From assembly GCA_016182875.1 (NCBI GenBank), contig JACPFQ010000004.1, forward strand, positions 99,203 to 163,202: DNA of 64,000 nucleotides, given 5' to 3'. Both the position numbers and the translations under genes were made by a program. Below the pieces are notes generated by a model, which was not told the origin of the DNA, did no database searches, and saw only the letters and a list, made by a program, of their open reading frames with translations. Below are positions 17,346-61,896 of the stretch, in pieces. Position 1 is the first letter of the stretch. Every line of letters begins with the position of its first letter. The stretch is from Candidatus Doudnabacteria bacterium. Its GTDB lineage: Bacteria; Patescibacteriota; Doudnabacteria; UBA920; O2-02-FULL-48-8.

Positions 17346-17602
17346 GGCAAATCAACTCCACCTAAGCTTCTGGGATTGCAGGCCATAAGCCTTTTTATTA
17401 TTTTGGGCAGACCGGTTACCCCTTCAGCCTGTAAAACCTTTTTTGCGTACATCGAACACGAAGGATAAAATTTGCAATAACCGTAAGGATAAAAAATTCT
17501 TAACAGTCCGTGGTCCGGCGAAATCGTCTTTTGGTAAATCAAAAGCAGCAAAACCAATGGTAAAGCAATTATGCGATTAGTGCTTGTTAAAATTTTTTCC
17601 AT
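17342..17602 (-). CDS. yidD: Membrane protein insertion efficiency factor YidD
   Basis: YPSCSMYAKKVLQAEG...RCNP motif typical of YidD. Confidence 0.85.
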   Translation of the reverse strand: MEKILTSTNRIIALPLVLLLLIYQKTISPDHGLLRIFYPYGYCKFYPSCSMYAKKVLQAEGVTGLPKIIKRLMACNPRSLGGVDLP

Positions 17603-17934: not shown

Positions 17935-18068
17935 TAAACTGTCAGTTTCCGCCTGCCCTTAGCGCGACGACGAGCCAAAACGTTGCGGCCGTTTCGGCTT
18001 TTCATCCTGCTGCGAAAGCCGTGAACTCTCTTTCTTCTTAATTTTTTAGGTCGATAGGTGGGCTGCAT
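17934..18068 (-). CDS. rpmH: 50S ribosomal protein L34 (not in the supplied ORF track; below its length cutoff)
   Basis: Hand translation gives [44 protein letters not shown] (44 aa); the stop TAA overlaps the rnpA ATG (TAATG). Confidence 0.85.
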
Positions 18069-18262
18069 AAGCTTTCTTACTATACCAACTTTGCCTTAGT
18101 TTGTCACGGGTATTAAACAGTAACAAAGTTTCAACCTCTATTCCACATCATATTAACAGTCATGCAAATTTTTGGCTAAAGTTAGCCAAAAATTTAGGAT
18201 TTACATGTTGATAACTTATCTGTTACAATACCGGAGTTAAAATCATTTTTGAAATCAAACTT
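18069..18262. other. Candidate oriC / dnaA promoter region (rpmH-dnaA intergenic)
   Basis: AT-rich; contains a near-DnaA-box TGTTGATAA (1 mismatch to TGTGGATAA) and TATTCCACA; conserved rpmH/dnaA divergent arrangement. Confidence 0.3.
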
Positions 18263-19597
18263 ATGACCAACCAACAGCTTTGGCAGGCAATTCTTGGCAA
18301 CTTGGAACTGACCCTCAGCAAGGCAAATTTTACGACCTGGTTTAAAAACACTTCGATCATCGAAAAAAGTGAGAATTCCATTGTAGTCGGAGTACCCAAT
18401 GGCTTCACCAAGGAGTGGCTGCAGAACAAATACCATCAGGAGATTCTGAAAGCCCTCAAAACAATTTCGCCGGAAATCAAGGAAATCAAATACCAAATAG
18501 TCAGCCCGACTTATACTCAACCGCAGATTGCGAAGGAAGTGGTCCGGCCGCAGCAAGTCAAAAGAGCTGATAATCAGAACTTGAACCCAAAATATACTTT
18601 TACCAGCTTCATTGTCGGGGCCAACAACCAATTGGCGCACGCGGCCAGCCTGGCGGTAAGCAAAAAACCGGGCCAGGTTTATAATCCGCTCTTCATCTAC
18701 GGCGGGGTGGGATTGGGAAAAACTCACCTCATGCAGGCCGTGGGCAGCGAAGTCCTCAAAAAATCCGCGAATGTCAAGGTTTTATATGTGACGTCCGAAA
18801 AATTTACCAATGAATTTGTCTCCGCAGTTTCTGCGGGAAAAACCGAGTCATTTAAATCTTTATACCGCAGCGTCGACGTTCTGCTGGTCGATGATATTCA
18901 ATTCTTGGCGGGAAGAGAAGGCACCCAGGAAGAATTTTTCCATACCTTCAATGCCCTGCATCAAAACAACAAGCAGGTCGTAATGACTTCCGACCGGCTG
19001 CCCAAAGAAATTCCTGCGATCGAAGAGCGCTTGGTTTCGCGCTTTGAATGGGGAATGATTGCCGACATTCAAGCGCCCGATTTGGAAACCCGCCTGGCGA
19101 TTCTTAAGACCAAAGCCCGGGAAAAAAATTACAACATCGAACCGGAGATTTTAACTTACATTGCGGAAACCATCCAAAGCAATATCAGGGAATTGGAAGG
19201 GGCCTTAAACCGGCTTATGGTCTACTGCCAGCTCAACAACACCCGCCCGACCATTGACCAGGTGAAGAATATCCTCGTCAACGTCATAACTCCCCCAAAA
19301 AGGCGTGGCGTCTCTGCCAAAAAAATCATTGAAGTCGTGGCTGACTTTTATAACGTTTCAATTGAGGACCTTCTCAAACAATCGAGAAAAAAAGAATACG
19401 TCAATCCGCGGCAAATCGCCATGTTCATCATCCGCCGGGAGCTAGAAACTTCCCTCCCATCGATCGGCGAGTTCTTTGGGGGCCGGGACCACACCACTGT
19501 AATCCATGCCATCGACAAAATCGATCGCCAAATCAAAGAACGCAACGGCTTAAAACAAGAGATAGATTTGATTAAGGATAGACTGTATATGCCGTGA
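18263..19597 (+). CDS. dnaA: Chromosomal replication initiator DnaA
   Basis: AAA+ Walker A (GGVGLGKTHL), DnaA signature, C-terminal DNA-binding domain. Confidence 0.95.
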   Translation: MTNQQLWQAILGNLELTLSKANFTTWFKNTSIIEKSENSIVVGVPNGFTKEWLQNKYHQEILKALKTISPEIKEIKYQIVSPTYTQPQIAKEVVRPQQVKRADNQNLNPKYTFTSFIVGANNQLAHAASLAVSKKPGQVYNPLFIYGGVGLGKTHLMQAVGSEVLKKSANVKVLYVTSEKFTNEFVSAVSAGKTESFKSLYRSVDVLLVDDIQFLAGREGTQEEFFHTFNALHQNNKQVVMTSDRLPKEIPAIEERLVSRFEWGMIADIQAPDLETRLAILKTKAREKNYNIEPEILTYIAETIQSNIRELEGALNRLMVYCQLNNTRPTIDQVKNILVNVITPPKRRGVSAKKIIEVVADFYNVSIEDLLKQSRKKEYVNPRQIAMFIIRRELETSLPSIGEFFGGRDHTTVIHAIDKIDRQIKERNGLKQEIDLIKDRLYMP

Positions 19598-19767
19598 GGG
19601 TAAACTGTTAATTAAAAATTACGGATTACGGGTTACGGATTTTTATACCGACGTTCCCCACAAGCTAAAAACAACAAGTTAAATAATCTAATTCGATAAT
19701 CCGCAATCCGTAATTAATAATTCCAACAAATACACAAACCCACAGTTTCTATTACCACTATTATTTT
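19598..19767. other. dnaA-dnaN intergenic region with inverted TTACGGAT-type repeats flanking an AT-rich core; alternative oriC candidate
   Basis: ttacggattacgggttacggatt ... aatccgcaatccgtaat (imperfect inverted repeats); TTCCCCACA and AACCCACAG as weak DnaA-box-like 9-mers. Confidence 0.3.
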
Positions 19768-20874
19768 TTGAAGACCATTATGAAAGTAGTATGCACCAAA
19801 GATAACTTAAGAAGAGGCCTGTTTGCCGTAAGCCGGGTGGTCGGGAGCGGAAACCCGTTGCAGGTTTTGAATAACATTTTGGTCAAAACCGACCAGGGGC
19901 GGGTCAAGCTATCTTCCACCAATCTTGAAATTGGAGTCAACACCTGGATTGGCGGAAAGATAGAAGAGGAGGGGGCGCTGACCGTGCCGGCCAGGCTGAT
20001 GAATGAATATATAAATAACCTGCCGGCTGACAAGGTTCTCATTACGGTTAAGGACACGGTTCTAAGCTTGGAGTCAGAGAATTATCACACGAATATCAAG
20101 GGGCTTTCGTCAGAAGATTTCCCCCTAATTCCACAGGTACTGGACGAGCCATACACCAAAGTTGACTCCGATGAGCTTAAATCAGCGCTTGCTGAAACAG
20201 TTTGGGCTGCGGCCAACAACGAGACCCAACCCGAGATTTCGGGGATATTTGTCGCTTTCGAGGATAACAAATTAAGGATTGCCGCCACTGACCGGTACCG
20301 CCTGGCAGAAAGAGTCGTGCCGCTTGCTGCTGCGGTCGCCACAAATAAAGAAGCTATAATTCCATCAAGGACAATCGGCGAGCTTTATAAAATACTTAGC
20401 CTGGGCAAGGGTGGGGTAGAAATTTACTTTTCGGAATCCCAGGTCTTGTTTAAGTTCGACGAGACCGAAATCATCTCACGCCTCATAGACGGCAACTATC
20501 CTGACTACCGCCAGATTATTCCGAAGACCTTTAAGACCGAAGCCGAGGTCGGGAAGTCAGAACTGCTTCACGCGCTCAAGGCAGCAAGCTTGTTTGCTCC
20601 TGACTCAAATAACGTCCAGGTGGAAGCGGGCAAGACCGAGCTGACAGTCGCCGCTTCGTCCGCCGCTGCCGGCGAAAACGTCACCAAGGTCGCAGCAGCA
20701 GTCAAGGGAGATAGCAACAGCGCAGTGTTCAACTTTCGATATCTCATCGATTGCCTCAACGCCTTGCCGGAAGAAAAAGTAATTCTTAAGATGATTAATG
20801 ACGCTTCGCCGGCCATGCTGCTGCCAGCCGGCCGCGATAATTATTTATACATCGTAATGCCAATTAAGCTGTAA
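19768..20874 (+). CDS. dnaN: DNA polymerase III beta sliding clamp
   Basis: MKVVCTKDNL... three-domain clamp architecture; 368 aa. Confidence 0.9.
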   Translation: MKTIMKVVCTKDNLRRGLFAVSRVVGSGNPLQVLNNILVKTDQGRVKLSSTNLEIGVNTWIGGKIEEEGALTVPARLMNEYINNLPADKVLITVKDTVLSLESENYHTNIKGLSSEDFPLIPQVLDEPYTKVDSDELKSALAETVWAAANNETQPEISGIFVAFEDNKLRIAATDRYRLAERVVPLAAAVATNKEAIIPSRTIGELYKILSLGKGGVEIYFSESQVLFKFDETEIISRLIDGNYPDYRQIIPKTFKTEAEVGKSELLHALKAASLFAPDSNNVQVEAGKTELTVAASSAAAGENVTKVAAAVKGDSNSAVFNFRYLIDCLNALPEEKVILKMINDASPAMLLPAGRDNYLYIVMPIKL

Positions 20875-22013
20875 TGAAGCTGGAAAGCATTGCTTTAGAA
20901 AATTTCCGCAACTACTCAAAAATCGAGGTCAATATAAATTCCGACCTCGTTTTGATTTTGGGGGCGAACGCCTCCGGCAAGACCAATTTTTTGGAAAGCA
21001 TTTATTTTTTGTCCCGTTTGAAGTCGTTCCGCAGCCCAGACCAGTTTCTTGTTAAAATCGGAGAGAACTATTTTAAGCTGGCGGCAAATGTCATTGCGAG
21101 GCCGGACTTGATCCGGCCGAAGCAATCTCATGGAGAGATCGCCGCGTCGTCCCGCCAAGGCGGGACTCCTCGCGATGACCAAGAAAAAGACCTAGAAGTT
21201 ATAGTCCAAGTCACCCCTATTTTAAAGCGCAGCTTTAAACTTAACGGCCAGAAAATCAAGCGCGGGCTTTGGCAAAGTTTTGCCGCGGTGCTGTTCATTC
21301 CCACTGACCTGAATTTGTTTTCTTTGGGTCCGTTATTGAGGCGAAGATACCTAGATGACACTTTATCCCAAGTCAGCAAAAATTATGCTTTTGATTTAGT
21401 TTCTTTGGACCATGTACTTGGTCAGCGCAAGGCCTTGCTGGAAAAAATAGCACTTCAGCAAGCCCAGCGTGAGGAGCTAAGCTTCTGGAACGAGCAGCTG
21501 ATTACTTTGACTTTAAGCATCGGCCAGGAGCGGAAATGTTTTTTGGATTTTTTAAACGAGCGGTTGAACTCGGTCTATTCGCAGTTGTCCGGTTTCAAAA
21601 ATAAATTCGCGGTTGAATACAAAACTGATGCTCAGGGCGACCTGCATAAACTGATCAAAGAGCATGAGGGGGCGGAGGTTAGGTCCGGCCAAAACCTCAT
21701 AGGACCGCATCGGGAAGACTTTGTCCTTAACAAAGACGGATTGTTGAATGTTTATAATTCATCCCGCGGCGAGCTCCGCTCCCAAATCTTGGCGATTAAG
21801 TTTTTACAAGCTGAGTACCTGAACAGCCACGACTTCAAGCCAATTATCTTTTTGGACGATGTTTTTTCCGAGCTCGACGAGGAGCGCCGGATTAAATTAC
21901 TGGAGAATCTTTCTGGCCACCAGATTTTTATCACGACCACCGAAGAGCACCACTTACCGGAAATAAAACAAGCGCAAAAGTTAAAAGTCGAGAATGGACA
22001 GTTCCTCCCCTGA
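20874..22013 (+). CDS. recF: DNA replication/repair protein RecF
   Basis: Walker A (LGANASGKTNFLESI) and a signature/Walker B region near the C-terminus. Confidence 0.9.
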   Translation: MKLESIALENFRNYSKIEVNINSDLVLILGANASGKTNFLESIYFLSRLKSFRSPDQFLVKIGENYFKLAANVIARPDLIRPKQSHGEIAASSRQGGTPRDDQEKDLEVIVQVTPILKRSFKLNGQKIKRGLWQSFAAVLFIPTDLNLFSLGPLLRRRYLDDTLSQVSKNYAFDLVSLDHVLGQRKALLEKIALQQAQREELSFWNEQLITLTLSIGQERKCFLDFLNERLNSVYSQLSGFKNKFAVEYKTDAQGDLHKLIKEHEGAEVRSGQNLIGPHREDFVLNKDGLLNVYNSSRGELRSQILAIKFLQAEYLNSHDFKPIIFLDDVFSELDEERRIKLLENLSGHQIFITTTEEHHLPEIKQAQKLKVENGQFLP

Positions 22014-22046
22014 TACCCCCTCTAACTCCCCCTTCCAGGGGGAGAA
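22013..22046 (+). terminator. recF terminator hairpin that is also a minimal copy of the palindromic-element terminal repeats (TAACTCCCCC-ttcca-GGGGGAGaaTTA)
   Basis: CCCCC-TTCCA-GGGGG stem-loop followed by aattatttttct; its ends match those of the elements inside uvrB and valS. Confidence 0.55.
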
Positions 22047-22141
22047 TTATTTTTCTAAAAATTAGACAAATCAAAAGAGCGAGGCCGACCCATACGGGGT
22101 CAAACCTCGCCCTCTCGTCCGGTCGAATGACCGGAACGTGT

Positions 22142-23884
22142 CTATCTGTCTTCCTCCTCCCTTTCGTTATCGAGCTCCATGTGAAGGCCTTGTGAGACCC
22201 TCAACATGAATTCGCGGCGCTCGTTCGGCTTGCCGCCGAAGAACTTAAACCTTCTCTCGACCTTCTTGGGTTCGTGGGCCACCACGTGATCCGCGGTCAT
22301 CATATTGATGACCTTCTGTTCCGCCTCAAGCCCGTCGACATGCTGAGCGAGCGCGGTTACCGCACTGCGGGCTTCACCCGTGACCCGCTCGACGGCAGCG
22401 ATGCGGTCCATCATGGACTGCCGCAGCTCGGCACCGTACTTGGTAACGACTTCCGTGGCCTGCGCCCGCGCCGCTGTAGTGACCCGCGCCTCGAGCCCGT
22501 CGAGCCCACTGTACTGGATCCTCAGGGCAGCGAGCTGCTGGCCCTGCGCCTGAACTTGCCGACGGAGCGCGGTGATGTCAGCGCTTGGCTGCGGCTGGGT
22601 GACCTGCTTCTGCACCGCCTCGATGCGCTGCTGCAGTCGGTAACCCATGGCGTTGGTCTGGTTATCCATGACTGTCACGTATTTGTCGGAGACGATTGTT
22701 CGGCCGTCCTGGCAGGTGACACCGACCTTGGTAGCTACCTTCCGAGCGTTGACCGGGTCGATGTTGACCGTGCCCACCACTTGCGTGGGTGAAGCGCTCG
22801 TCACGGTCATGCTGACACCGCGCGTGATATTCACCGCCGTCGGGTTTCCGGTGCAGAGGTTGCTGCCCGACAGGGTCAGCATCTGCGGTACCGGGTGGTC
22901 CACGACGATGGTGTCCGGTGATATCGAGGTGATCTGTCCGGCGGCCTGTGCGAACGCTGCGTTCGCGTAGCCGCCAAACAGCAGCGCCAGGATGATCACG
23001 GGAACCACAGGAGCCGGAGCCGCGGGAACGGCGGGCTGAGCCGAGACTTCCGCCGAGTTCGGTCCCTCGCCAGACCCGTAGTACGCGCTCACGACGTAGA
23101 AGTATTGGGTGCCGTTCGTGAGCCCCGCTGCGTCGGTGTAGGTCGTCGCATTGGCCGTGCCGACGATTGTGTACGGGCCGCCGGCAGTCGTGGCGCGTTT
23201 GACCGTGTAGAACACAGCGCCTGTGATTGCCGCCCAGTTGAGGACGACCTGAGCGTTCCCTGGCGTTGCCGCAAGCCCTGTGGGAGCAGCAGGTCTGTGT
23301 GCTTCCTGAGCGCGCCGACGGACTTCGGCGTCGCGGTCCTCCGGTTGTGCAGGACCGCGCCGCCGTAAGAACCAGACGGCAATGATGAGCACGAGCAGTC
23401 CCACACCAGCCCAGACGAACGGGGCCAAGTTGATGGCCGCTGGCGGACAGCCGGTGGTCAGAACGGGCGTTCCCTGCGGGGTGTCCTTGCACTGGTCGAC
23501 GTTGTCCGCGACCTTGTCGCCGTCCGAGTCAGTGGCGGCCGGCGGCGGTTCCTGCGCCTTGTCTGCCGCCTGCTGCTGTTCTTGCGAACAGCCGTTGCGG
23601 AAGATGGGCACGCCTTGCGGGGTGTTGGCGCACTGGTCGTCGCTGTTCGGGATGCCGTCGCGGTCTGCATCCGCCACCGGGGTTGCCGGTTGCGGAGTTG
23701 GCGTTGGCGCGGGAGCCGCGGGCTGGCCCTGAGTGGCCGGTGGTGCCTGCGGCGCGGGCGCGGGTTGCGGAGTCGGCGGTTGCGCAGTCGCAGCCTCGGG
23801 CTCCTGTGGCACGACCGGAATCTGCGCGAACGCGCTGGCGCTGAGCGCCAGCATTGCGAGCACGAAAACGAACATTCTTATCAT
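22142..23884 (-). CDS. High-GC secreted/membrane surface protein. Order: signal peptide, Pro-rich linker, two TSP3-like Ca-binding repeats, TM helix, FN3-like domain, second signal-peptide-like segment, Cys-containing beta domain, long coiled coil
   Basis: I prefer ATG at 23884 (MIRMFVFVLAMLALSASAFAQ) with SD AGGAGGG 3 nt upstream over the track start at 24106. Repeats DADRDGIPNSDDQC and DSDGDKVADNVDQC. FN3-like segment NAQVVLNWAAITGAVFYTVKR...GTQYFYVVSAYY. Confidence 0.55.
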   Translation of the reverse strand: MIRMFVFVLAMLALSASAFAQIPVVPQEPEAATAQPPTPQPAPAPQAPPATQGQPAAPAPTPTPQPATPVADADRDGIPNSDDQCANTPQGVPIFRNGCSQEQQQAADKAQEPPPAATDSDGDKVADNVDQCKDTPQGTPVLTTGCPPAAINLAPFVWAGVGLLVLIIAVWFLRRRGPAQPEDRDAEVRRRAQEAHRPAAPTGLAATPGNAQVVLNWAAITGAVFYTVKRATTAGGPYTIVGTANATTYTDAAGLTNGTQYFYVVSAYYGSGEGPNSAEVSAQPAVPAAPAPVVPVIILALLFGGYANAAFAQAAGQITSISPDTIVVDHPVPQMLTLSGSNLCTGNPTAVNITRGVSMTVTSASPTQVVGTVNIDPVNARKVATKVGVTCQDGRTIVSDKYVTVMDNQTNAMGYRLQQRIEAVQKQVTQPQPSADITALRRQVQAQGQQLAALRIQYSGLDGLEARVTTAARAQATEVVTKYGAELRQSMMDRIAAVERVTGEARSAVTALAQHVDGLEAEQKVINMMTADHVVAHEPKKVERRFKFFGGKPNERREFMLRVSQGLHMELDNEREEEDR

Positions 23885-24133
23885 CACACCCTCCTGTGAG
23901 ATGTGAAAGTTGGCCTCGCGGCCAGTTGAAACGAAACGCTCTGACGGCGTTTGGCCGCGAGCCAGTGCGTGAACTCTAGTAGCACTGCTTTTATGTCTGA
24001 AATTTATCCTGATGTAAATCAGGATCAGGCACAAAAGTAATCCTACTAAAATGGGGAGGAGCGAGGCAGTCTTGGTAGACCAGCCTCGCCCCACTCCTTC
24101 TTGCATCTCAGCGCTTGCGCGCTGAGTTTCCTC

Positions 24134-25960
24134 CTATCTGTTGTCTTCCTCCGGTCCGCCGTTGGGTGGCGCACCGTTCCGGGTCTCGCACGGGGTGGCC
24201 AGACCGAGCGCCTCGGCGACTGCTTGCGACGCCGTCTTGCGCTGGTTGGGCTGTCCGCGTCTGAGGAACCTGCCGCCAACGCGGTCAGGCTCGTCGTACA
24301 CGACATGCTGCATCGCAATGCAGGTGCCGGTCTCGACGTTGCCCATCCTGCCTTGCAGGTTGTTGACGTACCCGGCCTGGGTTGTCAGGGTCTTCGCGAG
24401 CTCCCCGGCGTAGCTAAGCGTCTGGTCAGCAACGCTGCGCGTCGCCTTGCCTGCCTCTTCGGCTGCGGCAATGCGCGACACCATGCGCTCCTCGAGGGTC
24501 TGGAGGTCGCTGAGGACATCCGCACGCCGCGCGAAGGGAGCCCATGATGCCTGGAGAAGCTCGCCAGCTTTCGCGTGCGTCGGCTGGGCGGAGTAGTCCA
24601 GGTAGCGCTTGTTCCCCTCTTCCCGCCCGTAGACCTGCTGGAACTTCTCCTGCAGGTAGTGTGAGAAACGCGGGTCGCGTCCGAACCGCTCGGCCGTGAT
24701 GTCGAGCACGGTCGCCGATTCCTGGCTGATGATGCGGACGACCGAGTTGCCCGACGCGATGTCGCCTGCGTCGGTGTTCACCACGAACGCCGTGGTCCCC
24801 GGCATGGCAGTCGCGTCTGCCTGGAGCTTGCTGATGATGGTGTTGCCCTTCATCACAATCTCCGTAGTGGTGGCCACACCGGTGCCGGCGTTGATGCCCG
24901 TGACCTTGCCGAGCTTGGCGTTGCGCGGGCAGGCCATGGTGATGGTCACGTCCGCGGCGTTGCCGCCCTGCACCAGGTATCCGTTCTGCACACTGACAGA
25001 ACGGACGGTGCACGTCGGAACTGCAGGGGCCGCGGGAGCGGCGGGCTGACCCTGAGCAGGCACCTGTGCGGCTGCCGGCTGCGGCGCTGCCGGCGGGGCC
25101 GGGGCAGCCGCACCGGGAGCGGCCGGCGCCGTGGTGACGGGTGGGGTCGGCTGCTGGGCGAGGGCGCTGTTGGCGCCGAGCCCGAGCAGGATGGCGATGA
25201 CGATGCTTCTCATGACAGTTCCTCCGAGTTTCCGGTTGATGTTGATGCCGAACCCGATGACGAGTCCGACGAGAATCACGAACCCGACGGCCCCGCCGAT
25301 GACGATGTACCGCAGCTTCTGATCGGTCCGCCGCGTGTCCTGGCGGGCGAGTAGCGCGTTGTTGGACGCCTTGATCGAGTACTGCCGGTCCATCCACGAG
25401 TTGTCCGCCGACGAGGCGATTGCCTTCTCGATTCGTCCGATGAGCGAGGCTTCGACGTCGTTCAGGCGGTGCTCGACGTCAGTAGGCGACGCGTTGTACG
25501 GCGCGACCTTGGCGATGTAGGTTCGGGTCGCTTCGAGAGGCGGTTGCGACGAGTCGGTGACCTTGACCGTGACCGTGTAGTCATCGCCTGGGATTTCTTC
25601 GCCACGCGATGAATACAGGTAGGCCTGACTCTTGCTCGGCAACCAGACATCGAGAATGTCTCCGTTCTTGATCTCGTCGACGATCTCCCACTTGTAGGGC
25701 TCGGTCCCGCCGCGCGCCGCCAGGTTGAACTCCTTGTAGCGGCCGGATTCGAACGCGATGGTCGTGGGTTCGACGATTGTCAACGAACCGGTTGCTGTCG
25801 CGGGCGGCTGCTGGGTCGAACCCGTCGCGGGCGGCGCCTGCTGAGTCGAAGTACCGGGCTGGCGAATCGTCGCGGTCTGCGCGCCGAGCGGCACCAGGTT
25901 CAAGAGGAACCCGAGCAGCAAAATCGCTGCGCAGATGAGGTACTGAGTCAACTTCTTCAT
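24134..25960 (-). CDS. High-GC surface protein, paralogous architecture to 22142..23884. Order: signal peptide, Thr/Pro-rich linker, Ig-like domain, TM helix, second signal peptide (with internal RBS + ATG at 25213), Pro-rich linker, Cys-containing beta domain, coiled coil
   Basis: SD AAGGGAGAG before ATG at 25960. GGTEPYKWEIV...DDYTVTVKVTD resembles bacterial putative-Ig domains. Internal GGAGGA-6nt-ATG (M250, MRSIVIAILLGLGANSALAQQ) is in frame. Confidence 0.55.
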   Translation of the reverse strand: MKKLTQYLICAAILLLGFLLNLVPLGAQTATIRQPGTSTQQAPPATGSTQQPPATATGSLTIVEPTTIAFESGRYKEFNLAARGGTEPYKWEIVDEIKNGDILDVWLPSKSQAYLYSSRGEEIPGDDYTVTVKVTDSSQPPLEATRTYIAKVAPYNASPTDVEHRLNDVEASLIGRIEKAIASSADNSWMDRQYSIKASNNALLARQDTRRTDQKLRYIVIGGAVGFVILVGLVIGFGININRKLGGTVMRSIVIAILLGLGANSALAQQPTPPVTTAPAAPGAAAPAPPAAPQPAAAQVPAQGQPAAPAAPAVPTCTVRSVSVQNGYLVQGGNAADVTITMACPRNAKLGKVTGINAGTGVATTTEIVMKGNTIISKLQADATAMPGTTAFVVNTDAGDIASGNSVVRIISQESATVLDITAERFGRDPRFSHYLQEKFQQVYGREEGNKRYLDYSAQPTHAKAGELLQASWAPFARRADVLSDLQTLEERMVSRIAAAEEAGKATRSVADQTLSYAGELAKTLTTQAGYVNNLQGRMGNVETGTCIAMQHVVYDEPDRVGGRFLRRGQPNQRKTASQAVAEALGLATPCETRNGAPPNGGPEEDNR

Positions 25961-28215: not shown

Positions 28216-28791
28216 TTATTCCCTCAGCCCGGGTGCTTTGGCTTCGGGCGGGAGCTTGTCGTACAAATCAGAAATCAATTTGGAGACCGCGGTCGGGTTT
28301 GGGATGCGCGAGAACACGAACCGCTCGACTTCGCCGGCGGTTTGGATGTGGACATTGCCGTAATTTAAAAACGTCGGGAAAAAACCCTTAACCTCGGCCG
28401 TGACATCCTGCATGCGCGAGAGATAAACTTCGGAAATTTTGTGATGAATCAGGGAGTGCTGGTCAATGTCGACCACGCGCTCGTTGGTGACAATCTGGAC
28501 GTTGAGATAGTAAATCACCCAAAGCATGAGCAGGCCCAGGATCAGAAACAGCAGGTAGATGCTTTTGAGCAAAGCGTAAATTTCTTGGTAGGGAGAGACA
28601 AAGATAAAGGATGCGTAGTGGGGAAGGTATTGGTCAGCCAAAACCAGAATGGCCACGAACAGTAGCCAAAGTGCGAATCTGAGGGCAAATACAAACCAGT
28701 GCTGGCGGATGACGAGGTAAACTTCCTCGTTTTCCTGCTGGCCGGGGAACAGATTTTGCTTGAAGTGTTGTTTGAGGGTTGGCCAGTACAT
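28216..28791 (-). CDS. Hypothetical membrane protein (two TM helices plus a cytoplasmic domain)
   Basis: I prefer the start at M14 (MYWPTLKQ), where the repeated leader cassette ends exactly at the ATG; the track start is 28830. Confidence 0.5.
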   Translation of the reverse strand: MYWPTLKQHFKQNLFPGQQENEEVYLVIRQHWFVFALRFALWLLFVAILVLADQYLPHYASFIFVSPYQEIYALLKSIYLLFLILGLLMLWVIYYLNVQIVTNERVVDIDQHSLIHHKISEVYLSRMQDVTAEVKGFFPTFLNYGNVHIQTAGEVERFVFSRIPNPTAVSKLISDLYDKLPPEAKAPGLRE

Positions 28792-28796
28792 GATAG

Positions 28797-28868
28797 AATT
28801 TTGAATGATTAATTTTGAATTTTGATTCAAATTCGAATTTCAGAAATTAGAATATTCATTCGAAATTC
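28797..28868 (-). repeat. Copy 1 of a ~75-90-bp AT-rich promoter/leader cassette ending at the ATG of the downstream gene
   Basis: aattttgaatgattaattttgaattttgattcaaattcgaatttcagaaattagaatattcattcgaaatt; near-identical to copies 2 and 3. Confidence 0.6.
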
Positions 28869-33398: not shown

Positions 33399-34568
33399 TT
33401 GTTAATGGGGTATATTAAACGGATTTACATTAGTAAATTTATGCAGCAAGCCGATTTTATAAGGATTGTAGACAGGCTCAACCAAGCCAGCAATATCCTG
33501 ATTCTAACCCCCCATACCGCGTCCGCGGATGACCTCGCGGCTTCCTTGGCGCTGCGCGGATTTCTTACCAAACTTGATAAAGAAACGACGCTGGTCAGCC
33601 CCGGGGCCTTGTCTGAAAAATATAATTTTTTGCCGCAATTCGAGCAGGTTAGAACCGACTTACAAGTGTCAAAAAATTTCATTATCGACGTTTCCACCAA
33701 GCGGGTAGCCATTGACGAGCTGTCCTATAAGAAGGAAGAAGACAAACTTTCGATTTTCATCAAGCCCAAAAATGACCAGTTCACCAAAGATGATGTCAGC
33801 GTCCGCACTTCTGACTTGCCCTTTGATTTGGTGATTCTAATCGGGGTTTCTTCCCTGGACAGTTTGGGGGAGTTTTACAGCAAGAATACCGAATTATTTT
33901 TCGAAGCGCCGGTGGTCAATATCGATTACAAGTCAACCAATGAAAATTATGGGCAGTTCAACCTCGTTGATTTGTCTGCGACTTCCAATTCCGAAATAAT
34001 TTTTGATCTCATCAATAGCTACGAAAGTTCGATGCTCGACGCCGAGATCGCCACCTCGCTTCTGACCGGCATCATCGCCGAGACCAACAGCTTTCAGCAT
34101 TCGCGCACCACTCCCAGTACTTTCCTTAAGGCGTCGCAGCTGGTCAGCCTGGGGGCGAACCAGCGCGAGATTATTGGCCGCCTCTTCAAAACCAAGACTT
34201 TAAGTTTTCTCAAGCTCTGGGGCCGCGTGCTGGCCCGCCTTAAGCAAGAGCCGGCCATGTCCTTGGTGTACTCCGTCGCCAACGCTTCGGATATCCAAAA
34301 ATCCGGGGCCGCCGCCGAAGACGTCAGGCAGATTATCAAGGAGATGTCGTTTCAGTTGTCTTTTGCCAAGATTTTTTTGTTTTTGGCGGAAACTTCCAAT
34401 CATCATATTGAAGTTTTTGCCTTCTCGACCGTGCCTTTGAATTTAAGCCAGGTCTTCGCTTCATTCAAACCGGAAGTAATAGGCAGCGTCGTCAGGTTTG
34501 AGGTCAATGCGGACCTAAACCAAGCCGAAATTGAAGTCTTAAACAAGCTCAAAGAAACTGTTTTGTAG
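33399..34568 (+). CDS. DHH-family phosphoesterase (NrnA-like, DHH + DHHA1)
   Basis: DHH and DHHA1 layout; the start may be the internal M at ~33441. Confidence 0.7.
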   Translation: MLMGYIKRIYISKFMQQADFIRIVDRLNQASNILILTPHTASADDLAASLALRGFLTKLDKETTLVSPGALSEKYNFLPQFEQVRTDLQVSKNFIIDVSTKRVAIDELSYKKEEDKLSIFIKPKNDQFTKDDVSVRTSDLPFDLVILIGVSSLDSLGEFYSKNTELFFEAPVVNIDYKSTNENYGQFNLVDLSATSNSEIIFDLINSYESSMLDAEIATSLLTGIIAETNSFQHSRTTPSTFLKASQLVSLGANQREIIGRLFKTKTLSFLKLWGRVLARLKQEPAMSLVYSVANASDIQKSGAAAEDVRQIIKEMSFQLSFAKIFLFLAETSNHHIEVFAFSTVPLNLSQVFASFKPEVIGSVVRFEVNADLNQAEIEVLNKLKETVL

Positions 34569-40749: not shown

Positions 40750-41469
40750 ATGTCCGAATTTGGAAGGGGAAATCCAGAGCAAAATCGAGAAATTAATACA
40801 AGATCTATCCAGATCGATAGCCCTGAGTTTGCTGAGTTTGAATCAGGGGATATGCGGGACTTGGTTAAGCGCTGGCGGCAAAATCACGCGGTTCTTTTGC
40901 CGATAATTAGGCGCGGAGACTTTCCATTTTTTGGCTTGCACGGCACAACCAGGTCCAATTTGGATAAAATGATACAAACGCAAGAAGCAAACGTTGAGAT
41001 GGCTACTTTCTACAAAAAAAATCGCTCAGAAAGGTTTTTGTACCAACTTTACGTAGCAGGACTTTATCCAGTTCCTTATGCCATGGGCCAAGCTGCTTAC
41101 CGCGAACAGAGTCCCGGAGGGATTATAGTTTTTAATCTAAATGACAAAGAAGGCAAAAATTTCACTTTTGAGTGGGAACACCTGCGTCCAGCTAGTTTTC
41201 CTGGATTAACATACGATACTGCTAAGGAGGGGCGCTTCATAGAATCTTTGGGACGTCGGGAAGGCTTATTATACAGGACAAAGCAGGATATTAAGGAATC
41301 GTTTGCTGAAAGATTTAAGGGGTATATAGATATGAATGATTTATCAAAGTATCACCAGGAAATATCTAAAGAAGATTTGACTGGTTTAGTCAGAGTAATT
41401 ATACGCCGTCGTTTTCTAGCCCAAGAAATTATAGCGCGAGCACTAGAACTGTTAGGCAAACAATCATGA
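40750..41469 (+). CDS. Hypothetical protein (239 aa) between polA and ppa
   Basis: ORF with ATGA overlap into ppa; no recognisable family. Confidence 0.5.
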   Translation: MSEFGRGNPEQNREINTRSIQIDSPEFAEFESGDMRDLVKRWRQNHAVLLPIIRRGDFPFFGLHGTTRSNLDKMIQTQEANVEMATFYKKNRSERFLYQLYVAGLYPVPYAMGQAAYREQSPGGIIVFNLNDKEGKNFTFEWEHLRPASFPGLTYDTAKEGRFIESLGRREGLLYRTKQDIKESFAERFKGYIDMNDLSKYHQEISKEDLTGLVRVIIRRRFLAQEIIARALELLGKQS

Positions 41470-42406: not shown

Positions 42407-44539
42407 TCACTTAAACTTATGCCTCTTCATTCTTGTCTTCTCTCGAATTGCCGAAATTTGGTCGCGCAAGGCTGCGGCTTTTTCGAAATCCAAATTCCTG
42501 GCCGCCAAATCCATCTGATCGCGCAGTTCTTCCACCAGGTATGCGATTTCTTGCCTGCTCATTTTCGTTAAATCAATCCCTGATTCCTGATTCTTGATTC
42601 CTGATTCTATCTTCATGCCTGCCAGCCGAGATTCCTTAACAGCTTTCTGGATGCTCGCCGGAATGATGCCGTGCTTCTTGTTATATTGTTCCTGGATTTT
42701 GCGGCGGCGGGCGACCTCATCCATGGCCCGCTTCATCGAGCCGGTAACCTGGTCTGCGTACATGATGACGCGGCCATCGATGTGCCGGGCCGCGCGGCCC
42801 ATGGTTTGGATGAGCGAAGTGTCCGAGCGCAGGAATCCTTCCTTATCCGCGTCCAAAATCGCGACCAATGACACTTCCGGCAAGTCCAATCCTTCCCGCA
42901 GTAAATTTATCCCCACGACCACGTCATAAACTCCCAAGCGTAAGTCTCTCAAAATTTCCAGTCTCTGCAGGGTTTCAATGTCAGCATGGAGGTAATGAAC
43001 CTTGACCCCGTATTCAGCCAAATAATTGGAAAGTTCTTCAGCCATGTTTTTGGTCAGAGTCGTAACCAAAACCCGCTGGCTATTTTTTACCCGATTTTGG
43101 ATTTCCTCCATAAGGTCGTCTATTTGATTTTTGGTCGGCCGAATTTCGATTTCCGGATCCAAGAGGCCGGTGGGCCGGATTAACTGCTCGGCGACCTGCT
43201 TGGAAGCTTTTATCTCGCGCTCTTTGGCGGGCGTGGCAGAGACAAAAATCGTTTGATCGGTTTTTTTTTCGAATTCTTCGAATTTCAGCGGCCGGTTGTC
43301 TAGGGCGCTCGGCAATCTGAAGCCGTAGTCGACCAGAGTTTGTTTGCGGGCTGAATCGCCTTCATACATGCCGTTTATTTGCGGCAGGGTGATGTGGGAT
43401 TCGTCGATGAACAGCAAGAAGTCATCCGGAAAATAATCGAGCAGGGTCGAGGGCGGCTCTCCGGGCTTGCGGAAGTCCAAGTGGCGGGAATAATTTTCGA
43501 TGCCGTTAACAAACCCGGTTTCAATCATCATTTCGATGTCAAAGTTGGTGCGCTGTTCGATTCTTTGGGCTTCTAGGAGTTTGTCTTGACTTTTGAAAAA
43601 TTTAACCTGCTCAGCAAGCTCTGCCCGAATGTTTTCGATGGCGGCAAGCATTTTTTCCCTCGGGGTCACGAAATGCTTGGCTGGGAAGATGGTGAGTTGG
43701 CTTAGAGACGGATCGTTTTTAGACCGTAACTCCCCCGCTTTGCCTAATGCCTTTGCTCCCCCTCTTATCCTAAGAGGGGGTTTGTTTTCAGTCTTATCCC
43801 CCCTTGGAACAAGGGGGGATAAAGGGGGGTTAGAAGCAGAGGCTAAATCCTCCCCGGTCAGCGGATCATGTAAACTAATTTTCTCAATCTCGTCCCCATA
43901 AAAATTAATGCGATAGACTTTGTCTTCAGATGCAGGGATTATTTCTACCACGTCTCCACGTACCCTGTAAGTTCCTCTTCGAAGTTCGACGTCATTGCGC
44001 ATGAACTGCAGGTCAGTCAGCCGGCGCAAAAACTTGTCGCGCTTGATTTTGGCCCCGACTTTGATGGGGACGGAAAGCTCCAGGTAGTCGCCTGGGTTGC
44101 CCAGGCCGTAGATGCAGGAGACCGACGCGACAATCAAGACGTCTTGGCGACTAAGCAAACTTTGCGTGGCGGCGTTGCGAAGTTTGTCGATTTCTTCGTT
44201 GATTTCCGTTTCTTTCTCGATATAGGTGTCGCTTCGCGGAATGTACGCTTCCGGCTGGTAGTAATCGTAGTAGGAAACGAAATAATGCACGGCGTTGTCC
44301 GGGAAAAAATCCTGGAATTCCGAAGCCAGCTGGGCGGCCAGAGTTTTGTTATGCGAGATTACGAGGGTCGGTTTTTGGACAAGTGCTACGATGTTGGCCA
44401 TGGTGAAAGTCTTGCCGCTGCCCGTGACCCCGAGCAAAGTTTGGTAGCGGTAATTTTTTTTGAGGCCCGCAGCTAGCTTTTCGATCGCCTGCGGCTGGTC
44501 GCCCGAAGGTTTGAATGGTGACTGAAGCTGGAATTTCAT
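42407..44539 (-). CDS. uvrB: Excinuclease ABC subunit B, carrying an in-frame ~40-aa insertion encoded by a palindromic element
   Basis: UvrB helicase motifs throughout; the inserted segment [46 protein letters not shown] sits between the conserved DPLTGE and [13 protein letters not shown]. Confidence 0.93.
43727..43832. mobile_element. MITE-like palindromic element inserted in frame inside uvrB
   Basis: Terminal repeats TAACTCCCCCGCTTTG ... GGGGGGTTA; internal perfect hairpins CCCCCTCTTA-tcc-TAAGAGGGGG and ATCCCCCCTTG-gaa-CAAGGGGGGAT. Confidence 0.55.
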
Positions 44540-45307: not shown

Positions 45308-45410
45308 TGTTAATTCCTCCCCTAGAATAGGGGAGGTTAGGAGGGGTAGAGTACGAGCTTGAACCGTACCTCCCCTAGCCCCTCCTATTCTAGGAGGGGA
45401 ATTAAAATAT
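45308..45410. repeat. ~100-bp palindromic element (terminal inverted repeats TTAATTCCTCCCCTAGAATAGG / CCTATTCTAGGAGGGGAATTAA) filling the ruvA-femAB intergenic region
   Basis: Near-perfect 22-bp terminal inverted repeats plus internal sub-palindromes (GTACG...CGTAC). Confidence 0.5.
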
Positions 45411-58714: not shown

Positions 58715-59716
58715 CTAGGCAGCCAATCCTAATTCCTCTTCCGGCGGCTGGGCAGCTTGAATGCGCGCTTCGATTCTTCGCCGAAGCATGGGGTCGACCG
58801 AAGTTAAATTCAATTCTTTGAGCAGCGGCAGAGCTTGCAGAGGTTTATTTGGGTCAGAGACCTCGGTTCTGAGCTGCTCCAAAAATTTCTCGGAAAAAAA
58901 TTGTCGCGCCAGCTCCTGGAAATCGGAGCGTGCTAGATCTTCGCCCTCCAATTTGCCACGCAACATTGCCTGCCAAACCGTCTGAGGCGAAACCCCAGTC
59001 TCTCGTGACAAATGGTCAATCATGATCTCAACCAAACTTATTTCCAAGTCATAAACTTTGTGGCGATGATCATCCGCGAACAGTGCTTTGAGCTTTTCTG
59101 TATTCGCCCGGTCTACAAAATCAGGATGGGCCTGCAGATATTCCAGCACGATTACACGCGACCGTTTCTCATTCAGTCCTTCCTCGAGTATGTCATAAGT
59201 GTCGTATTCCTCCGATACATCCTCATCGTTTGCATGATACAAGCTATAGCCGCGGCGGAGCAGATAATTTGGACTGTCACCTTCCTCGCCAAACATTCCG
59301 GTACAGTCACTTTTGGAAACGGCGTGCCCTTCTTCGTGGACCACAAACCACAGCCATAACAGTTCAGCTGGGAGTTGCCATCGTTTGGCGTGATTACGCA
59401 GTACGTCGGGATTCGCAAGTATGTGGTTGTCAGTGACCGAATAAAGTCCCTGGTGATCCAAAGTGCGGTCAACTGTAAACATCTCGGCGGGAATAAAATT
59501 CAAACTGTTTGGGTCAATATCAGTATGGATTAGGTCTCTGCCAAATCGATGCTTGAGCCATTCGAAATCAATTTTTGCCAGTACCTGCTCCATTTCCGGG
59601 TCACGCTCAGATTCGTGGATTTCTTTACGGACTTTTGACTCGCGTGCCGCTATTATCCCAGGGTCATCAGGCAAGCCTTGTAAATTGTAATATTCTCGAC
59701 TCCGTCTCATGGCCAT
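58715..59716 (-). CDS. Hypothetical protein with an HExxH zinc-metallopeptidase-like motif (VVHEEGHAV), co-oriented with and overlapping the valS stop
   Basis: HEEGH motif; 10-nt overlap with valS suggests co-transcription. Confidence 0.5.
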   Translation of the reverse strand: MAMRRSREYYNLQGLPDDPGIIAARESKVRKEIHESERDPEMEQVLAKIDFEWLKHRFGRDLIHTDIDPNSLNFIPAEMFTVDRTLDHQGLYSVTDNHILANPDVLRNHAKRWQLPAELLWLWFVVHEEGHAVSKSDCTGMFGEEGDSPNYLLRRGYSLYHANDEDVSEEYDTYDILEEGLNEKRSRVIVLEYLQAHPDFVDRANTEKLKALFADDHRHKVYDLEISLVEIMIDHLSRETGVSPQTVWQAMLRGKLEGEDLARSDFQELARQFFSEKFLEQLRTEVSDPNKPLQALPLLKELNLTSVDPMLRRRIEARIQAAQPPEEELGLAA

Positions 59717-61896
59717 TTTTGTATCATCAGTAAATCTTCATGCGTCAACTGCCAGACGGTTTCGGTCACGAAGGGCATGAACGGATGTAGAAGTTTTAAT
59801 TGGGTTTCCAGCGCAGTTTTAAGCATAAGTTGGGCTGACGCTCTGGTTTTTTCGTCAGCCAGTTTGGACTTGGATTCTTCGATGATTTTGTCGGCAAAGG
59901 TATGCCAGAAGTAATGGTAGAGGTCTTCGGCCGCATGGGCAAAGTCGAATTTTTCGAGCTGTTTCGTGATGCTTTTAACGAGAGAATCAAGCTCTTCGAG
60001 AATTTTTTTATCCGCAGGCAATAACGCCCCCGCTTTGGGTTGGGCTTTTTTACCCAGCCCCCGGCGGCTGGTGAGGGAGGAAGTTTCTCTTAATTTAAGA
60101 GGGGGTTGGGGGGAGTTATAATCCTCGGTGTTTTGCAGCACAAACCTTGCCGCATTCCAAATTTTGTTGGCAAAATTGCGATAACCCTTGACTTTCATTT
60201 CATCATACTTACTGTCATTGCCAGGGCCCACGCCGACAACGAGAGCCATACGCAATGCATCTGCTCCATATTTTTGGATGACTTCTACGGGGTCAATGCC
60301 GGTACCCTGCGATTTGCTGAATTTTTTGCCTTCAATGTTGCGAACCATGCCGTGCAAATAAACGACTTGAAAAGGAACTTCTCCCAGAAGAAACGTGCTC
60401 ATTAGAATCATTCTAGCCACCCAGAAGAACAGGATTTCATACCCCGGCGCCATGACGGAGGTGGGGTGGAAGGTTTTCAAATCTTGTATTTCTTTGGGCC
60501 ATCCCAAAGTAGAGAAAGTCCAAAGCGCAGATGAAAACCAGGTGTCGAGCGTATCTTCGTCTTGCGTCCAGCCATCTTCTTTTGGAGGTTCGATATCGCA
60601 ATAGATTGTAGTACCTTTATACCAAACTGGAATTCGATGACCGTACCAAAGCTGGCGGCTGATGTTCCAGTCGCGCAGATTGTCTATCCAGTTAAAATAA
60701 ACTTTTTCAAAGCGTTCGGGCAGGATCTTAACCCCACCGCTTCTTACGGCATTGTGCATTAACTGCTTCAGGCTTGTCTTTTTGCCATTTCTTTCGAATT
60801 CTTTGTTGACATCCACGAACCATTGCAGCTTGGGCAGAGGTTCGATAACCCCGCTGCTTCTCTCGGCTGTCGCGATGTTCATATCTATGTCTTCGGTTTT
60901 TTCCAGCAGGCCATTTTCTTTCAGCCAGCTGACTATTATCTCGCGCGCTTCTTTGGTTTTTTTCCCGGCCACCAGCGCGCCTGCCGCTTCAATCATGCGG
61001 GCATATTCATTGATGACCTGAACAGGCTTAAGATTTTGCCTAAGTGCTATTTCATAGTCGGTAATGCTGTGGGCTGGAGTCACGCCCACAGCGCCTGTGC
61101 CGAATTCCGGGTCGACTGTATCGTCAGCCACGATTTTTATGTTCAATTTGGTTCCGGCGAATTCGACTTCATATTCTTTGCCGATGAATTTTTTGTACCG
61201 TTTGTCCTTTGGGTTGACAGCCACGGCCACGTCGCCGACCTTGGTTTCGGGTCTGGTGGTGGCAATGGCAATCGGGAAATCTTTGGAATATTTGAAGGTA
61301 TAAAGTTGGCCTTTTTCGGTTTTATGCACGACCTCGTCGTCGGAAACGGATGTTTGGCCTTTCGGGTCCCAGTTGATAACGCGGGTGCCGCGGTAGATAA
61401 GCCCTTCATCGTACATTTTTTTAAACGCCGTGCGCACCGCCAGATTGCGCGGCTCGTCAAAAGTGAACGCCTCGCGCGACCAATCCGCCGAAGCGCCTAT
61501 GGTCCTGAGCTGCTTTTGGATAGTGCCCCGACTTGCGTCCACGAACTCCTCGACTTTTTTGACAAAAGCTTCGCGACCGATATCATGCCGATTTTTACCT
61601 TCTTCTTTGATCAGAATTTTTTCTACTTTGGTATTGGTCGCAATTGCGGCATGGTCCGTTCCCGGGAGCCAAAGGGTCTTATCTCCCTTCATCCGATGAT
61701 AGCGTGTCAAAATATCCTGGATCGAGGTCTCAAATGCATGACCGATATGAAGCGTGCCCGTGGCATTGGGGGGAGGCATCATAATCGTGAACGGCTCGCC
61801 TTCGAGATTGTCCGGGTTGAAATATCCCGATGATTCCCACAGTTTGTACACATTTGGCTCGCCGGCTTGATTATAGTGCTTAGGGATGTTTTGCAT
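59707..61896 (-). CDS. valS: Valyl-tRNA synthetase (short form lacking a C-terminal coiled coil), carrying an in-frame palindromic-element insertion
   Basis: HIGH (TGTLHIGHA), KMSKS-like (KKFSKSQG), ValRS editing-domain blocks; the inserted segment is SPQPPLKLRETSSLTSRRGLGKKAQPKAG. Confidence 0.88.
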   Translation of the reverse strand: MQNIPKHYNQAGEPNVYKLWESSGYFNPDNLEGEPFTIMMPPPNATGTLHIGHAFETSIQDILTRYHRMKGDKTLWLPGTDHAAIATNTKVEKILIKEEGKNRHDIGREAFVKKVEEFVDASRGTIQKQLRTIGASADWSREAFTFDEPRNLAVRTAFKKMYDEGLIYRGTRVINWDPKGQTSVSDDEVVHKTEKGQLYTFKYSKDFPIAIATTRPETKVGDVAVAVNPKDKRYKKFIGKEYEVEFAGTKLNIKIVADDTVDPEFGTGAVGVTPAHSITDYEIALRQNLKPVQVINEYARMIEAAGALVAGKKTKEAREIIVSWLKENGLLEKTEDIDMNIATAERSSGVIEPLPKLQWFVDVNKEFERNGKKTSLKQLMHNAVRSGGVKILPERFEKVYFNWIDNLRDWNISRQLWYGHRIPVWYKGTTIYCDIEPPKEDGWTQDEDTLDTWFSSALWTFSTLGWPKEIQDLKTFHPTSVMAPGYEILFFWVARMILMSTFLLGEVPFQVVYLHGMVRNIEGKKFSKSQGTGIDPVEVIQKYGADALRMALVVGVGPGNDSKYDEMKVKGYRNFANKIWNAARFVLQNTEDYNSPQPPLKLRETSSLTSRRGLGKKAQPKAGALLPADKKILEELDSLVKSITKQLEKFDFAHAAEDLYHYFWHTFADKIIEESKSKLADEKTRASAQLMLKTALETQLKLLHPFMPFVTETVWQLTHEDLLMIQKWP
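60022..60118. mobile_element. Second copy of the MITE-like palindromic element, in frame inside valS
   Basis: TAACGCCCCCGCTTTG ... GGGGGGAGTTA termini; internal CCCCCTCTTAAATTAAGAG palindrome; same family as the uvrB copy. Confidence 0.5.

Follow-up and report, generated by a model that had tools for sequence, protein, structure and literature searches.

A palindromic repeat, probably translated, within uvrB

The window analysed here, a 64,000-nucleotide stretch of contig JACPFQ010000004.1 from Candidatus Doudnabacteria bacterium (assembly GCA_016182875.1), contains uvrB on its minus strand (42407-44539) as an intact open reading frame (ORF) of 710 codons, and this gene hosts a nested palindrome of 106 bp (43727-43832). 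With a probability of about 0.85, this segment is a copy of a dispersed palindromic repeat family that was inserted in frame and is read through as a tolerated disordered loop, as selfish or neutral DNA. An earlier note, made from the letters of the window alone, had described at this place a segment of about 106 bp with inverted termini, translated in frame into a P/G/K/R-rich stretch of about 40 extra residues. All these features are present where it had placed them, and the net gain relative to orthologues amounts to 44 residues.

According to the scenario favoured here, a nested palindrome resembling the repetitive extragenic palindromic (REP) units and their doublets (REPINs), or the MITEs (miniature transposable elements with inverted repeats), would have landed in the turn that closes domain 2 of UvrB, the UvrA-interaction domain. 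Since the net insertion has a length divisible by three and brings in no stop codon, uvrB stays open. The element would be transcribed and translated as a disordered surface loop of about 44 residues, rich in P, G, K and R, which the enzyme would tolerate. We infer that the element is translated, not excised, and that its presence is neutral. Selfish or neutral DNA would persist in this way in an essential-type gene, as Rickettsia palindromic elements (RPEs) and intragenic REPs do, and the hairpins would probably be the substrate recognised during a presumed movement.

The extra segment and its position in UvrB

The product of the host gene is a complete UvrB. It shows full-length similarity to the UvrB structures of the PDB (E = 2.5e-263), in two blocks comprising query residues 2-232 and 280-701, and has the helicase motifs, the UvrA-interaction domain and the C-terminal UVR domain of this protein, the Pfam domains recognised being UvrB_inter, Helicase_C, UvrB and UVR. 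In an alignment of 119 UvrB sequences (the window protein and 118 orthologues), it retains every invariant column, and its closest homologues, 81-86% identical, come from Candidatus Doudnabacteria. The spacing between the motifs HDPLTG and TIFPAKHF is exactly 9 residues in 116 of the 119 sequences; it reaches 53 in the window protein, 46 in the protein P0001 and 14 in the protein P0002. The alignment with orthologues, which the earlier note had proposed as a check, delimits the insertion: together with the codon map, it places 44 net extra codons at residues 236-279 (132 nt, about 43703-43834, minus strand). The palindromic element accounts for 106 of these 132 nt and is translated in frame on the minus strand.

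Solved UvrB chains align up to residue 235 and restart at residue 239; the insert replaces a turn of three residues (236-238 of 9gy7_E). The Pfam domain UvrB_inter, that is the UvrA-interaction domain 2, covers residues 158-237 and ends at profile position 82 of 91. An AlphaFold model obtained with 119 sequences (mean predicted local distance difference test, pLDDT, 76.7; predicted template modelling score, pTM, 0.71) was used, an earlier model from 20 sequences (mean pLDDT 50.7) being set aside as too poor. Residues 234-277 appear in it as coil with pLDDT <50 (block means 23-42), flanked by segments at 76-96. The insert is predicted to form a disordered, P/G/K/R-rich surface loop compatible with the fold, and the surface loop expected from the sequence is therefore supported, at the level of prediction, by both the gap in the PDB alignments and the low-pLDDT coil.

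Both flanks of the segment are contiguous, in-frame uvrB, and the gene order ruvA-uvrB-rpsT-ppa-polA is kept in relatives. A repeat-induced chimera created during assembly is extremely improbable in this context, even if the source is a metagenome-assembled genome (MAG) whose exact UvrB protein is absent from the protein collection, in which its ValRS is present. Similar in-frame copies are moreover found across many independent assemblies, that of Csx14 for instance on 65 contigs.

Anatomy of the element

The uvrB element is a full-length doublet, or L-form, copy of a palindromic family with the general form TAAC-C5...G5-GTTA, as judged from profile match, nested fold and alignment. Its left terminal inverted repeat, TAACTCCCCC (43727-43736; the left terminus reads TAACTCCCCCGCTTTG over 43727-43742), pairs with the right one, GGGGGGTTA (43824-43832), in the DNA and RNA folds and in the consensus structure of the family. 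The two perfect hairpins that had been noticed are both present. The first, CCCCCTCTTA-tcc-TAAGAGGGGG (43758-43780), has a 10-bp stem with a 3-nt loop and corresponds to the core hairpin of the family. The second, TTATCCCCCCTTG-gaa-CAAGGGGGGATAA (43794-43822), equivalent to hairpin 2 of the family, is longer than initially described, with a 13-bp stem and a 3-nt loop.

Neither hairpin sequence was found in 100 dinucleotide-preserving shuffles of the window, which contains in total about 10 perfect hairpins with stems of at least 9 bp in 64 kb, two of them inside this segment. The RNA fold of the segment reaches -55.9 kcal/mol (z = -3.95 versus shuffles), and its DNA fold, in which the termini pair as an outer stem enclosing both hairpins, has a z of -4.67. 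The uvrB copy is structurally intact.

A repeat family crossing phylum boundaries

An nhmmer profile of the L form, built solely from 19 unrelated metagenome copies, matches the uvrB element end to end (43728-43832, model positions 2-82) with E = 6.5e-12. A metagenome scan for 19 specified bases (AACNCCCCCNAACCCCCTCTT) returned at least 120 stretches, versus about 7 expected by chance according to a rough estimate. The search for further copies suggested in the earlier note was therefore productive, since copies exist in valS of the same window, in other Doudnabacteria ORFs and in these metagenome stretches.

The forms of the family were analysed on 131 matches within the stretches found by the core-motif scan. 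The common plan consists of TAAC-N-C5, the core hairpin CCCCCTCTTA/TAAGAGGGGG, an optional second hairpin and G5-N-GTTA, and all copies inspected have the termini TAAC[T/G]CCCCC ... GGGGG[A/C]GTTA. The S form, of 41-50 nt, reads TAAC-N-CCCCC-(C/T)AA-CCCCCTCTTA-loop-TAAGAGGGGG-spacer-GGGGGAGTTA. The L form, a doublet of 78-102 nt, adds the hairpin CCTCCCCTTAAG-N-TAAGGGGAGG and ends in GGGAGGGGTTA. Hairpin 1 is the conserved core of the 131 matches. The consensus structure of 21 aligned L-form copies comprises 28 pairs, which form the terminal outer stem and two hairpins. Compensatory double changes occur at 5 of these 28 pairs, four of them among the 10 pairs of hairpin 2, a part of the element that the search pattern left unconstrained. 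The pairing of hairpin 2 is maintained through compensatory substitutions.

If the copies are sorted by an operational test, namely whether an open frame (≥450 nt) spans the core, 99 of the 131 count as intergenic and the other 32 as located in long open frames, all six frames being represented. The in-frame hosts confirmed by Pfam include SecA, DnaG, a MiaB-like radical-SAM enzyme (two copies), an RluA-type pseudouridine synthase and UDP-glucose dehydrogenase, to which ValRS and Csx14 can be added. A homologous copy is found in frame at the same ValRS position in GCA_036278915.1 (L003), the ValRS of another locus (L107) carries one at this site as well, and a hypothetical protein of Doudnabacteria MFEL01000014.1 (L008) contains an in-frame copy encoding the peptide NSPQPPLYQRGGGTASGKAGEL. 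Besides Doudnabacteria, the family is present in a Patescibacteria MAG and in Candidatus Kapaibacterium, and its range extends to Parcubacteria (SecA cluster with KKU72755.1), Nitrospirae (Csx14 PIV43358.1) and Desulfomicrobium (MDY0276158.1). Since these taxa span several phyla, the family crosses phylum boundaries, a range which is unusual among REP-like repeats. The picture given by the earlier note has to be qualified in this respect: the family is not specific to a lineage and is mostly intergenic.

The MiaB-like radical-SAM gene L061:1066-2638 contains two adjacent family units, P/G-rich segments (SPSPCKGEGRGEV) and a C-terminal tail (SPPYEGGASRRREGV), which suggests multiple repeat insertions in a single gene.

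Could the uvrB segment be instead an ancestral linker of this UvrB lineage, palindromic by chance? The three closest UvrBs, namely the window protein, P0001 and P0002, all have an expanded loop and cluster together, and the insert tails are similar among the expanded-loop proteins, one of them reading QHPASDSL. This explanation is nevertheless very unlikely, and is largely refuted by the fixed 9-residue turn of 116 of the 119 UvrBs, by the end-to-end match of the DNA to a profile of unrelated metagenome contigs, by the same termini and core hairpin in valS, in other genomes and in other genes, and by the P0001 insert, which lacks detectable DNA similarity to the element. This last insert (L001:10715-10850, ENA ERZ27254845) is a different, non-palindromic sequence of 37 residues lodged in the exact same UvrB loop, and no second copy of it was found in the 0.87 Mb compared. 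It may be either a decayed orthologous copy or an unrelated insert. P0002 (locus L002) has 5 extra residues in the same loop, the site being nearly empty in this relative at the DNA level. Since the three expanded-loop UvrBs form one clade in a neighbour-joining (NJ) tree drawn without bootstrap, an old insertion event is suggested by these sequences.

A removal of the segment after transcription or translation, in the manner of an intron or an intein, would also leave a UvrB protein without insert. Intervening sequences are known in rRNA genes of the Candidate Phyla Radiation (CPR), and the RNA structure of the segment is compact and very stable. This possibility is very improbable all the same, considering that in uvrB, as in about a dozen conserved genes, the net insertion has a length divisible by three and contains no stop, and that straight read-through is observed in 9 of the 14 copies having at least 120 open codons on both sides. 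In addition, Rfam gave no match at the gathering score and only chance-level ones (17 bits versus a threshold of 37), hence no group I/II intron structure, and a low-complexity stretch of 44 residues devoid of intein motifs is too small for an intein.

A third proposal is that the segment was co-opted, the loop modulating the UvrA-UvrB interaction or the mRNA hairpins regulating the translation or stability of uvrB, which would keep the palindromes perfect. The position of the insert within the UvrA-interaction domain, the stability of the RNA fold given above, the perfection of the hairpins in spite of a possibly old insertion and the compensatory changes in the hairpins of the family speak for it. 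Such an exaptation is however unlikely. Copies of this DNA are found in every reading frame, in numerous unrelated proteins and for the most part outside genes, so that no function is conserved at the protein level; furthermore, the valS copy is decayed and the uvrB loop is predicted to be disordered.

Searches by other routes were less informative. The pattern TAACNCCCCCGCTTTG N55-85 GGGGGG, derived from the ends of the window copy, had no match among the GTDB species representatives, so that the source genome is absent from that set. When the 43-residue insert peptide was compared by phmmer with 1.84 billion representative proteins, a single match appeared, P0241, which was rejected as a translated CRISPR array. 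This annotated protein of 85 aa originates from the array L005:43-304 (JGI Ga0117908_1047163), whose 37-nt repeat, GTAACAACCCGCCTCTGCGGATTAGGGGTTCTGCAAC, is unrelated in DNA to the element; its repeat peptide, NNPPLRIRGSAT, mimics that of the uvrB insert, a false protein-level homology produced by translated repeats. Short repeat-encoded peptides are unable to reach significance in protein searches of this kind. Repeats of this family can seed spurious ORFs and false protein "homologies", and they probably break metagenome assemblies.

Other copies in the window

A second in-frame copy is hosted by valS (59707-61896, minus strand), whose product is identical to NCBI MBI2356040.1 of Candidatus Doudnabacteria bacterium. 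This decayed copy (60022-60118) lies in the linker between the catalytic and the anticodon-binding domains and encodes the peptide NSPQPPLKLRETSSLTSRRGLGKKAQPKAGAL, about 26 residues at this place being absent from orthologues. Its termini are TAACGCCCCCGCTTTG ... GGGGGGAGTTA, and the whole stretch 60022-60118 carries TAACGCCCCCGCTTTG ... CTCTTAatTTAAGAGGGGGTTGGGGGGAGTTA. The hidden Markov model (HMM) of the S form matches positions 60087-60118 with E = 3.6e-9 and that of the L form does so partially (E = 8.7e-6). The DNA fold is no better than that of shuffled sequences (z = -0.55), so that the palindromes have decayed.

The spacer between ruvA and femAB contains a related nested palindrome of 97 nt, TTAATTCCTCCCCTA-gaa-TAGGGGAGG ... 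CCCCTCCTA-ttc-TAGGAGGGGAATTAA (45310-45406). It is strongly palindromic (DNA fold z = -5.83) and gives weak HMM matches to the family, with E = 7e-4 for the L form over 45312-45406, and E = 6.5e-3. At the same ruvA-femAB junction, the relative L002 has no spacer and L001 an unrelated one of 108 nt. Finally, a short hairpin, TAACTCCCCC-ttcca-GGGGGAG (22023-22045; fold z = -2.75), follows recF. Its HMM match is marginal (22015-22049, E = 0.16), and it is possibly a minimal or relic unit of the family, or a mere terminator.

A different palindromic insert occupies another site of ValRS in the Doudnabacteria protein P0139 (L004:10001-12175, GCA_040960095.1). This in-frame sequence, GTCATTCCCGCGAAAGCGGGAATCCAG...ATCCCGGATCAAGTCCGGGATGAC, encodes the peptide SVIPAKAGIQSSGSRIK at residues about 372-390. 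Palindromes of at least two families have therefore settled in ORFs of Doudnabacteria. Short lineage-specific inserts are also present in the ValRS orthologues P0123, P0130 and P0141.

Gain, loss and insertion sites

The comparison of empty and filled sites, another check proposed in the earlier note, could be made on csx14, for which both kinds of allele exist. The Nitrospirae csx14 alleles share 95-96% DNA identity, belong to one protein cluster at 90% identity and differ only by the element. The empty allele (L133:1501-2640, protein P0291) reads ...KKDRVLKKNGKELH...; a short-filled allele (L134:1307-2479) contains a 46-nt S-form and reads ...VLTPLNPPLCKGGNGGLKPLH...; and a long-filled allele (L015:1203-2405) carries a longer form of the element. 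Such a high identity between empty and filled alleles implies a recent gain or loss. The filled allele has TAACCCCCCTTAATCCCCCCTTAtgtTAAGGGGGGAAATGGGGGGTTA where the empty one has AAAAAAAATGGC: 12 host nucleotides are replaced, and AAATGG is common to host and element. No direct repeat and no target-site duplication were seen in this comparison, and the csx14 junction lacks the classical target-site-duplication signature of MITEs.

The linker of ValRS provides a second case. A family element occupies this site in the window (60022-60118), in L003 (11792-11857) and in L107 (about 8788-8845), and the comparison of these three filled sites with the empty site of L132 again revealed no target-site duplication. 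A model based on duplication of a TA target was tried and rejected: it would break the reading frame at the insert of valS, and the terminal TAA/TTA form an inverted repeat, not a direct one. The TA or TAA at the ends of the element is inseparable from its inverted repeat. An NJ tree does not group the ValRSs bearing the insert (the window protein, P0143 and that of L107) as sisters, and one of these belongs to a very distant CPR lineage. Either the linker was hit independently several times or the element was lost many times; recurrent hits would point to a site preference or to a strongly permissive site.

Candidate mobilising genes

The ORFs located within 2 kb of metagenome copies were clustered in search of a gene that could move the element. 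Among the 920 neighbouring ORFs, no DDE or Y1 transposase family is recurrent, and the most recurrent family is DUF559 (PF04480), a Vsr-like PD-(D/E)XK endonuclease. Family elements flank DUF559 genes on either side, in most cases at no more than 50 nt from the gene or overlapping its 3' end. This arrangement was observed at L015:591-1125, L042:9695-10262, L087:1-448 and L027:897-1393, and in Kapaibacterium at L011:5823-6344. It was found as well at two DUF559 loci chosen by protein similarity alone, L137:3004-3437 and L135:9851-10427, the latter on a 3.58-Mb contig with flanking elements matched at E = 1e-21 and 3e-19. Many DUF559 matches are on contigs of 0.5-2 kb, as can be expected because repeats break assemblies.

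As DUF559 is the only protein-coding gene repeatedly bracketed, a copying process triggered by this nuclease and templated by repair, in place of a classical cut-and-paste transposase, is put forward as a tentative best guess for the spread of the family. A broader proposal appears rather doubtful: the uvrB insert would be a non-autonomous member of an undescribed, cross-phylum class of mobile elements whose autonomous form would be a small DUF559 gene between the same nested palindromes (a 'REPtron' built on a nuclease). The class would spread by copying that a nuclease induces and that microhomology or repair templates, without target-site duplication, and would settle repeatedly in the same permissive loops of essential proteins, such as the ValRS linker. 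If the association is true, it would give a function to DUF559, a very common family of unknown function flagged here as a possible repeat-associated nuclease, and a new route to REP-like repeats. No connection of DUF559 to repeats was found by title or abstract in the papers of the searched library that mention this family.

An equally tentative explanation is that a conventional transposase acts in trans, either a REP-associated tyrosine transposase (RAYT) or another Y1 enzyme of the IS200-IS605 type, or else an enzyme of the IS630/IS5 type. The element has the typical architecture of REPINs and MITEs: its ends are inverted repeats, its units are hairpins that exist as singlets or inverted doublets, and most copies are intergenic. 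The missing target-site duplication fits the IS200/IS605-type chemistry. Two RAYT-like ORFs near copies, at 51 nt in L052 and at 1.3 kb in L075, point weakly in the same direction. At its other extremity, however, the ORF of L052 bears another hairpin, and Pfam recognises nothing in this ORF at 1e-5. No GTAG or CGTC tetranucleotide tag, by which the two superfamilies of REPs are defined (Di Nocera et al. 2013, PMC3733652), was seen at the ends of the copies inspected. As mentioned above, recurrence near copies is led by DUF559 and not by any transposase. No insertion sequence (IS) with ends matching the element was found either, and the 64-kb window contains no IS gene.

Several observations weigh against the interpretation of the uvrB segment as an inserted mobile repeat. 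No transposase, RAYT or DUF559 gene is present in the window or in the Doudnabacteria loci examined, and the 120 best DUF559 matches include no protein with a Doudnabacteria name; mobility in this lineage is consequently deduced from other lineages. Inside the ORFs of the 64-kb window, there is just a single intact copy beside a single decayed one. The comparisons delimited neither the exact borders of the insertion nor a target sequence. Lastly, the insertion is seemingly old, yet the hairpins of the window copy are perfect while the 37 extra residues of P0001 are non-palindromic and unmatched. Structural selection, gene conversion from other copies or re-insertion are possible reasons for this perfection.

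Comparison with known palindromic elements

Insertions of palindromes in coding sequences are already known. In Opitutus, Thauera and Xanthomonas, among others, Di Nocera et al. (2013, PMC3733652) described excinuclease ABC proteins, UvrD, PolA, tRNA synthetases and a pseudouridine synthase decorated with REPs. For CPR/Patescibacteria, no account of MITEs, REPs or palindromic elements was found, and a literature search with sequence strings was also without relevant match. The phenomenon itself, given the in-frame REP and RPE insertions already published in other phyla, is less novel than the earlier note assumed. New, as far as could be checked, are the family and its host phylum, its distribution across phyla, the repeatedly hit ValRS site and the bracketing of DUF559.

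Close analogues by description are the RPEs (Ogata et al. 2000, 2002), here considered through the summary given in PMC10969869. According to this summary, RPEs are palindromes of about 100-150 bp found in frame in unrelated housekeeping genes and also between genes, and, like the present element, they are translated as additional peptides compatible with the fold and missing from orthologues. The hosts differ, CPR and several free-living phyla on one side and an obligate intracellular alphaproteobacterium on the other. The nested palindrome with C5/G5 runs is a consensus of its own, the likeness to RPEs being one of description and not of compared sequences. Only about a quarter of the sampled copies of the present family are in long open frames, and the family crosses phyla. 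A candidate partner gene, DUF559, exists here, whereas the RPE summary names none. From the host phylum and the C5/G5 consensus, homology to the RPE-1 to RPE-10 consensus families is unlikely, and the family is treated as an analogue rather than a member.

The resemblance to intragenic REPs and REPINs (PMC3733652; REPINs and RAYTs, PMC8049555) is closer still. The units of the family, imperfect palindromes of small size, exist either singly or as inverted doublets folding into a larger hairpin, and are mostly extragenic. The same classes of genes are hit (UvrB, ValRS and RluA-type enzyme here, excinuclease, tRNA synthetase and pseudouridine synthase there), and a cognate gene is bracketed by the repeats, as in a 'REPtron'. 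In contrast, the ends of the family are TAAC...GTTA, without GTAG or CGTC tag, and the bracketed gene encodes a DUF559 PD-(D/E)XK endonuclease instead of a RAYT tyrosine transposase, so that the family is not a member of a REP superfamily. REP families are moreover usually specific to a species or genus, whereas the core described here is nearly identical across phyla.

With bacterial MITEs, such as QMITE1 of Coxiella (PMC5896051), ERIC and Correia/NEMIS (PMC10969869), the family shares terminal inverted repeats, a size below 300 bp, a non-coding nature, a multicopy state and occasional in-frame fusions that add basic peptides to proteins. It differs from them by being shorter (41-106 nt) and essentially made of hairpins, and in that neither a target-site duplication nor an IS with matching ends was found. 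The label "MITE-like" proposed in the earlier note is consequently appropriate for the terminal inverted repeats and the multicopy state; a MITE in the strict sense is not demonstrated, no target-site duplication, transposase or parent IS having been found.

The presence of such an insert in uvrB extends protein-coding palindromes, known as RPEs and intragenic REPs, to the CPR, whose small genomes are presumed to be streamlined. "Insertions" annotated in housekeeping proteins of these bacteria can be selfish DNA and not adaptations. The family itself is unusual by its core of about 40 nt, nearly identical across several phyla, by its recurrence at a single position of ValRS in non-sister lineages and by its pointing to DUF559.

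Other features of the window

Two large adjacent ORFs on the minus strand (22142-24106 and 24134-25960), with products of 654 and 608 aa, are without Pfam match (threshold E <= 1e-4), and the same is true for the ORFs 521-1729, 1781-2467, 4301-4861, 28216-28830, 33399-34568 and 40750-41469. Two adjacent tRNA genes (Rfam tRNA, 58 and 62 bits) are located at 469-631. The ORF 521-1729 overlaps them, and its true start is therefore further downstream. A cluster of the type found at replication origins extends over 16163-22013 and is composed of yidC, a gene for a jag-like KH/R3H protein, a gap, dnaA, dnaN and recF. The non-coding gap, of about 0.9 kb (17346-18262), probably contains the replication origin, oriC.

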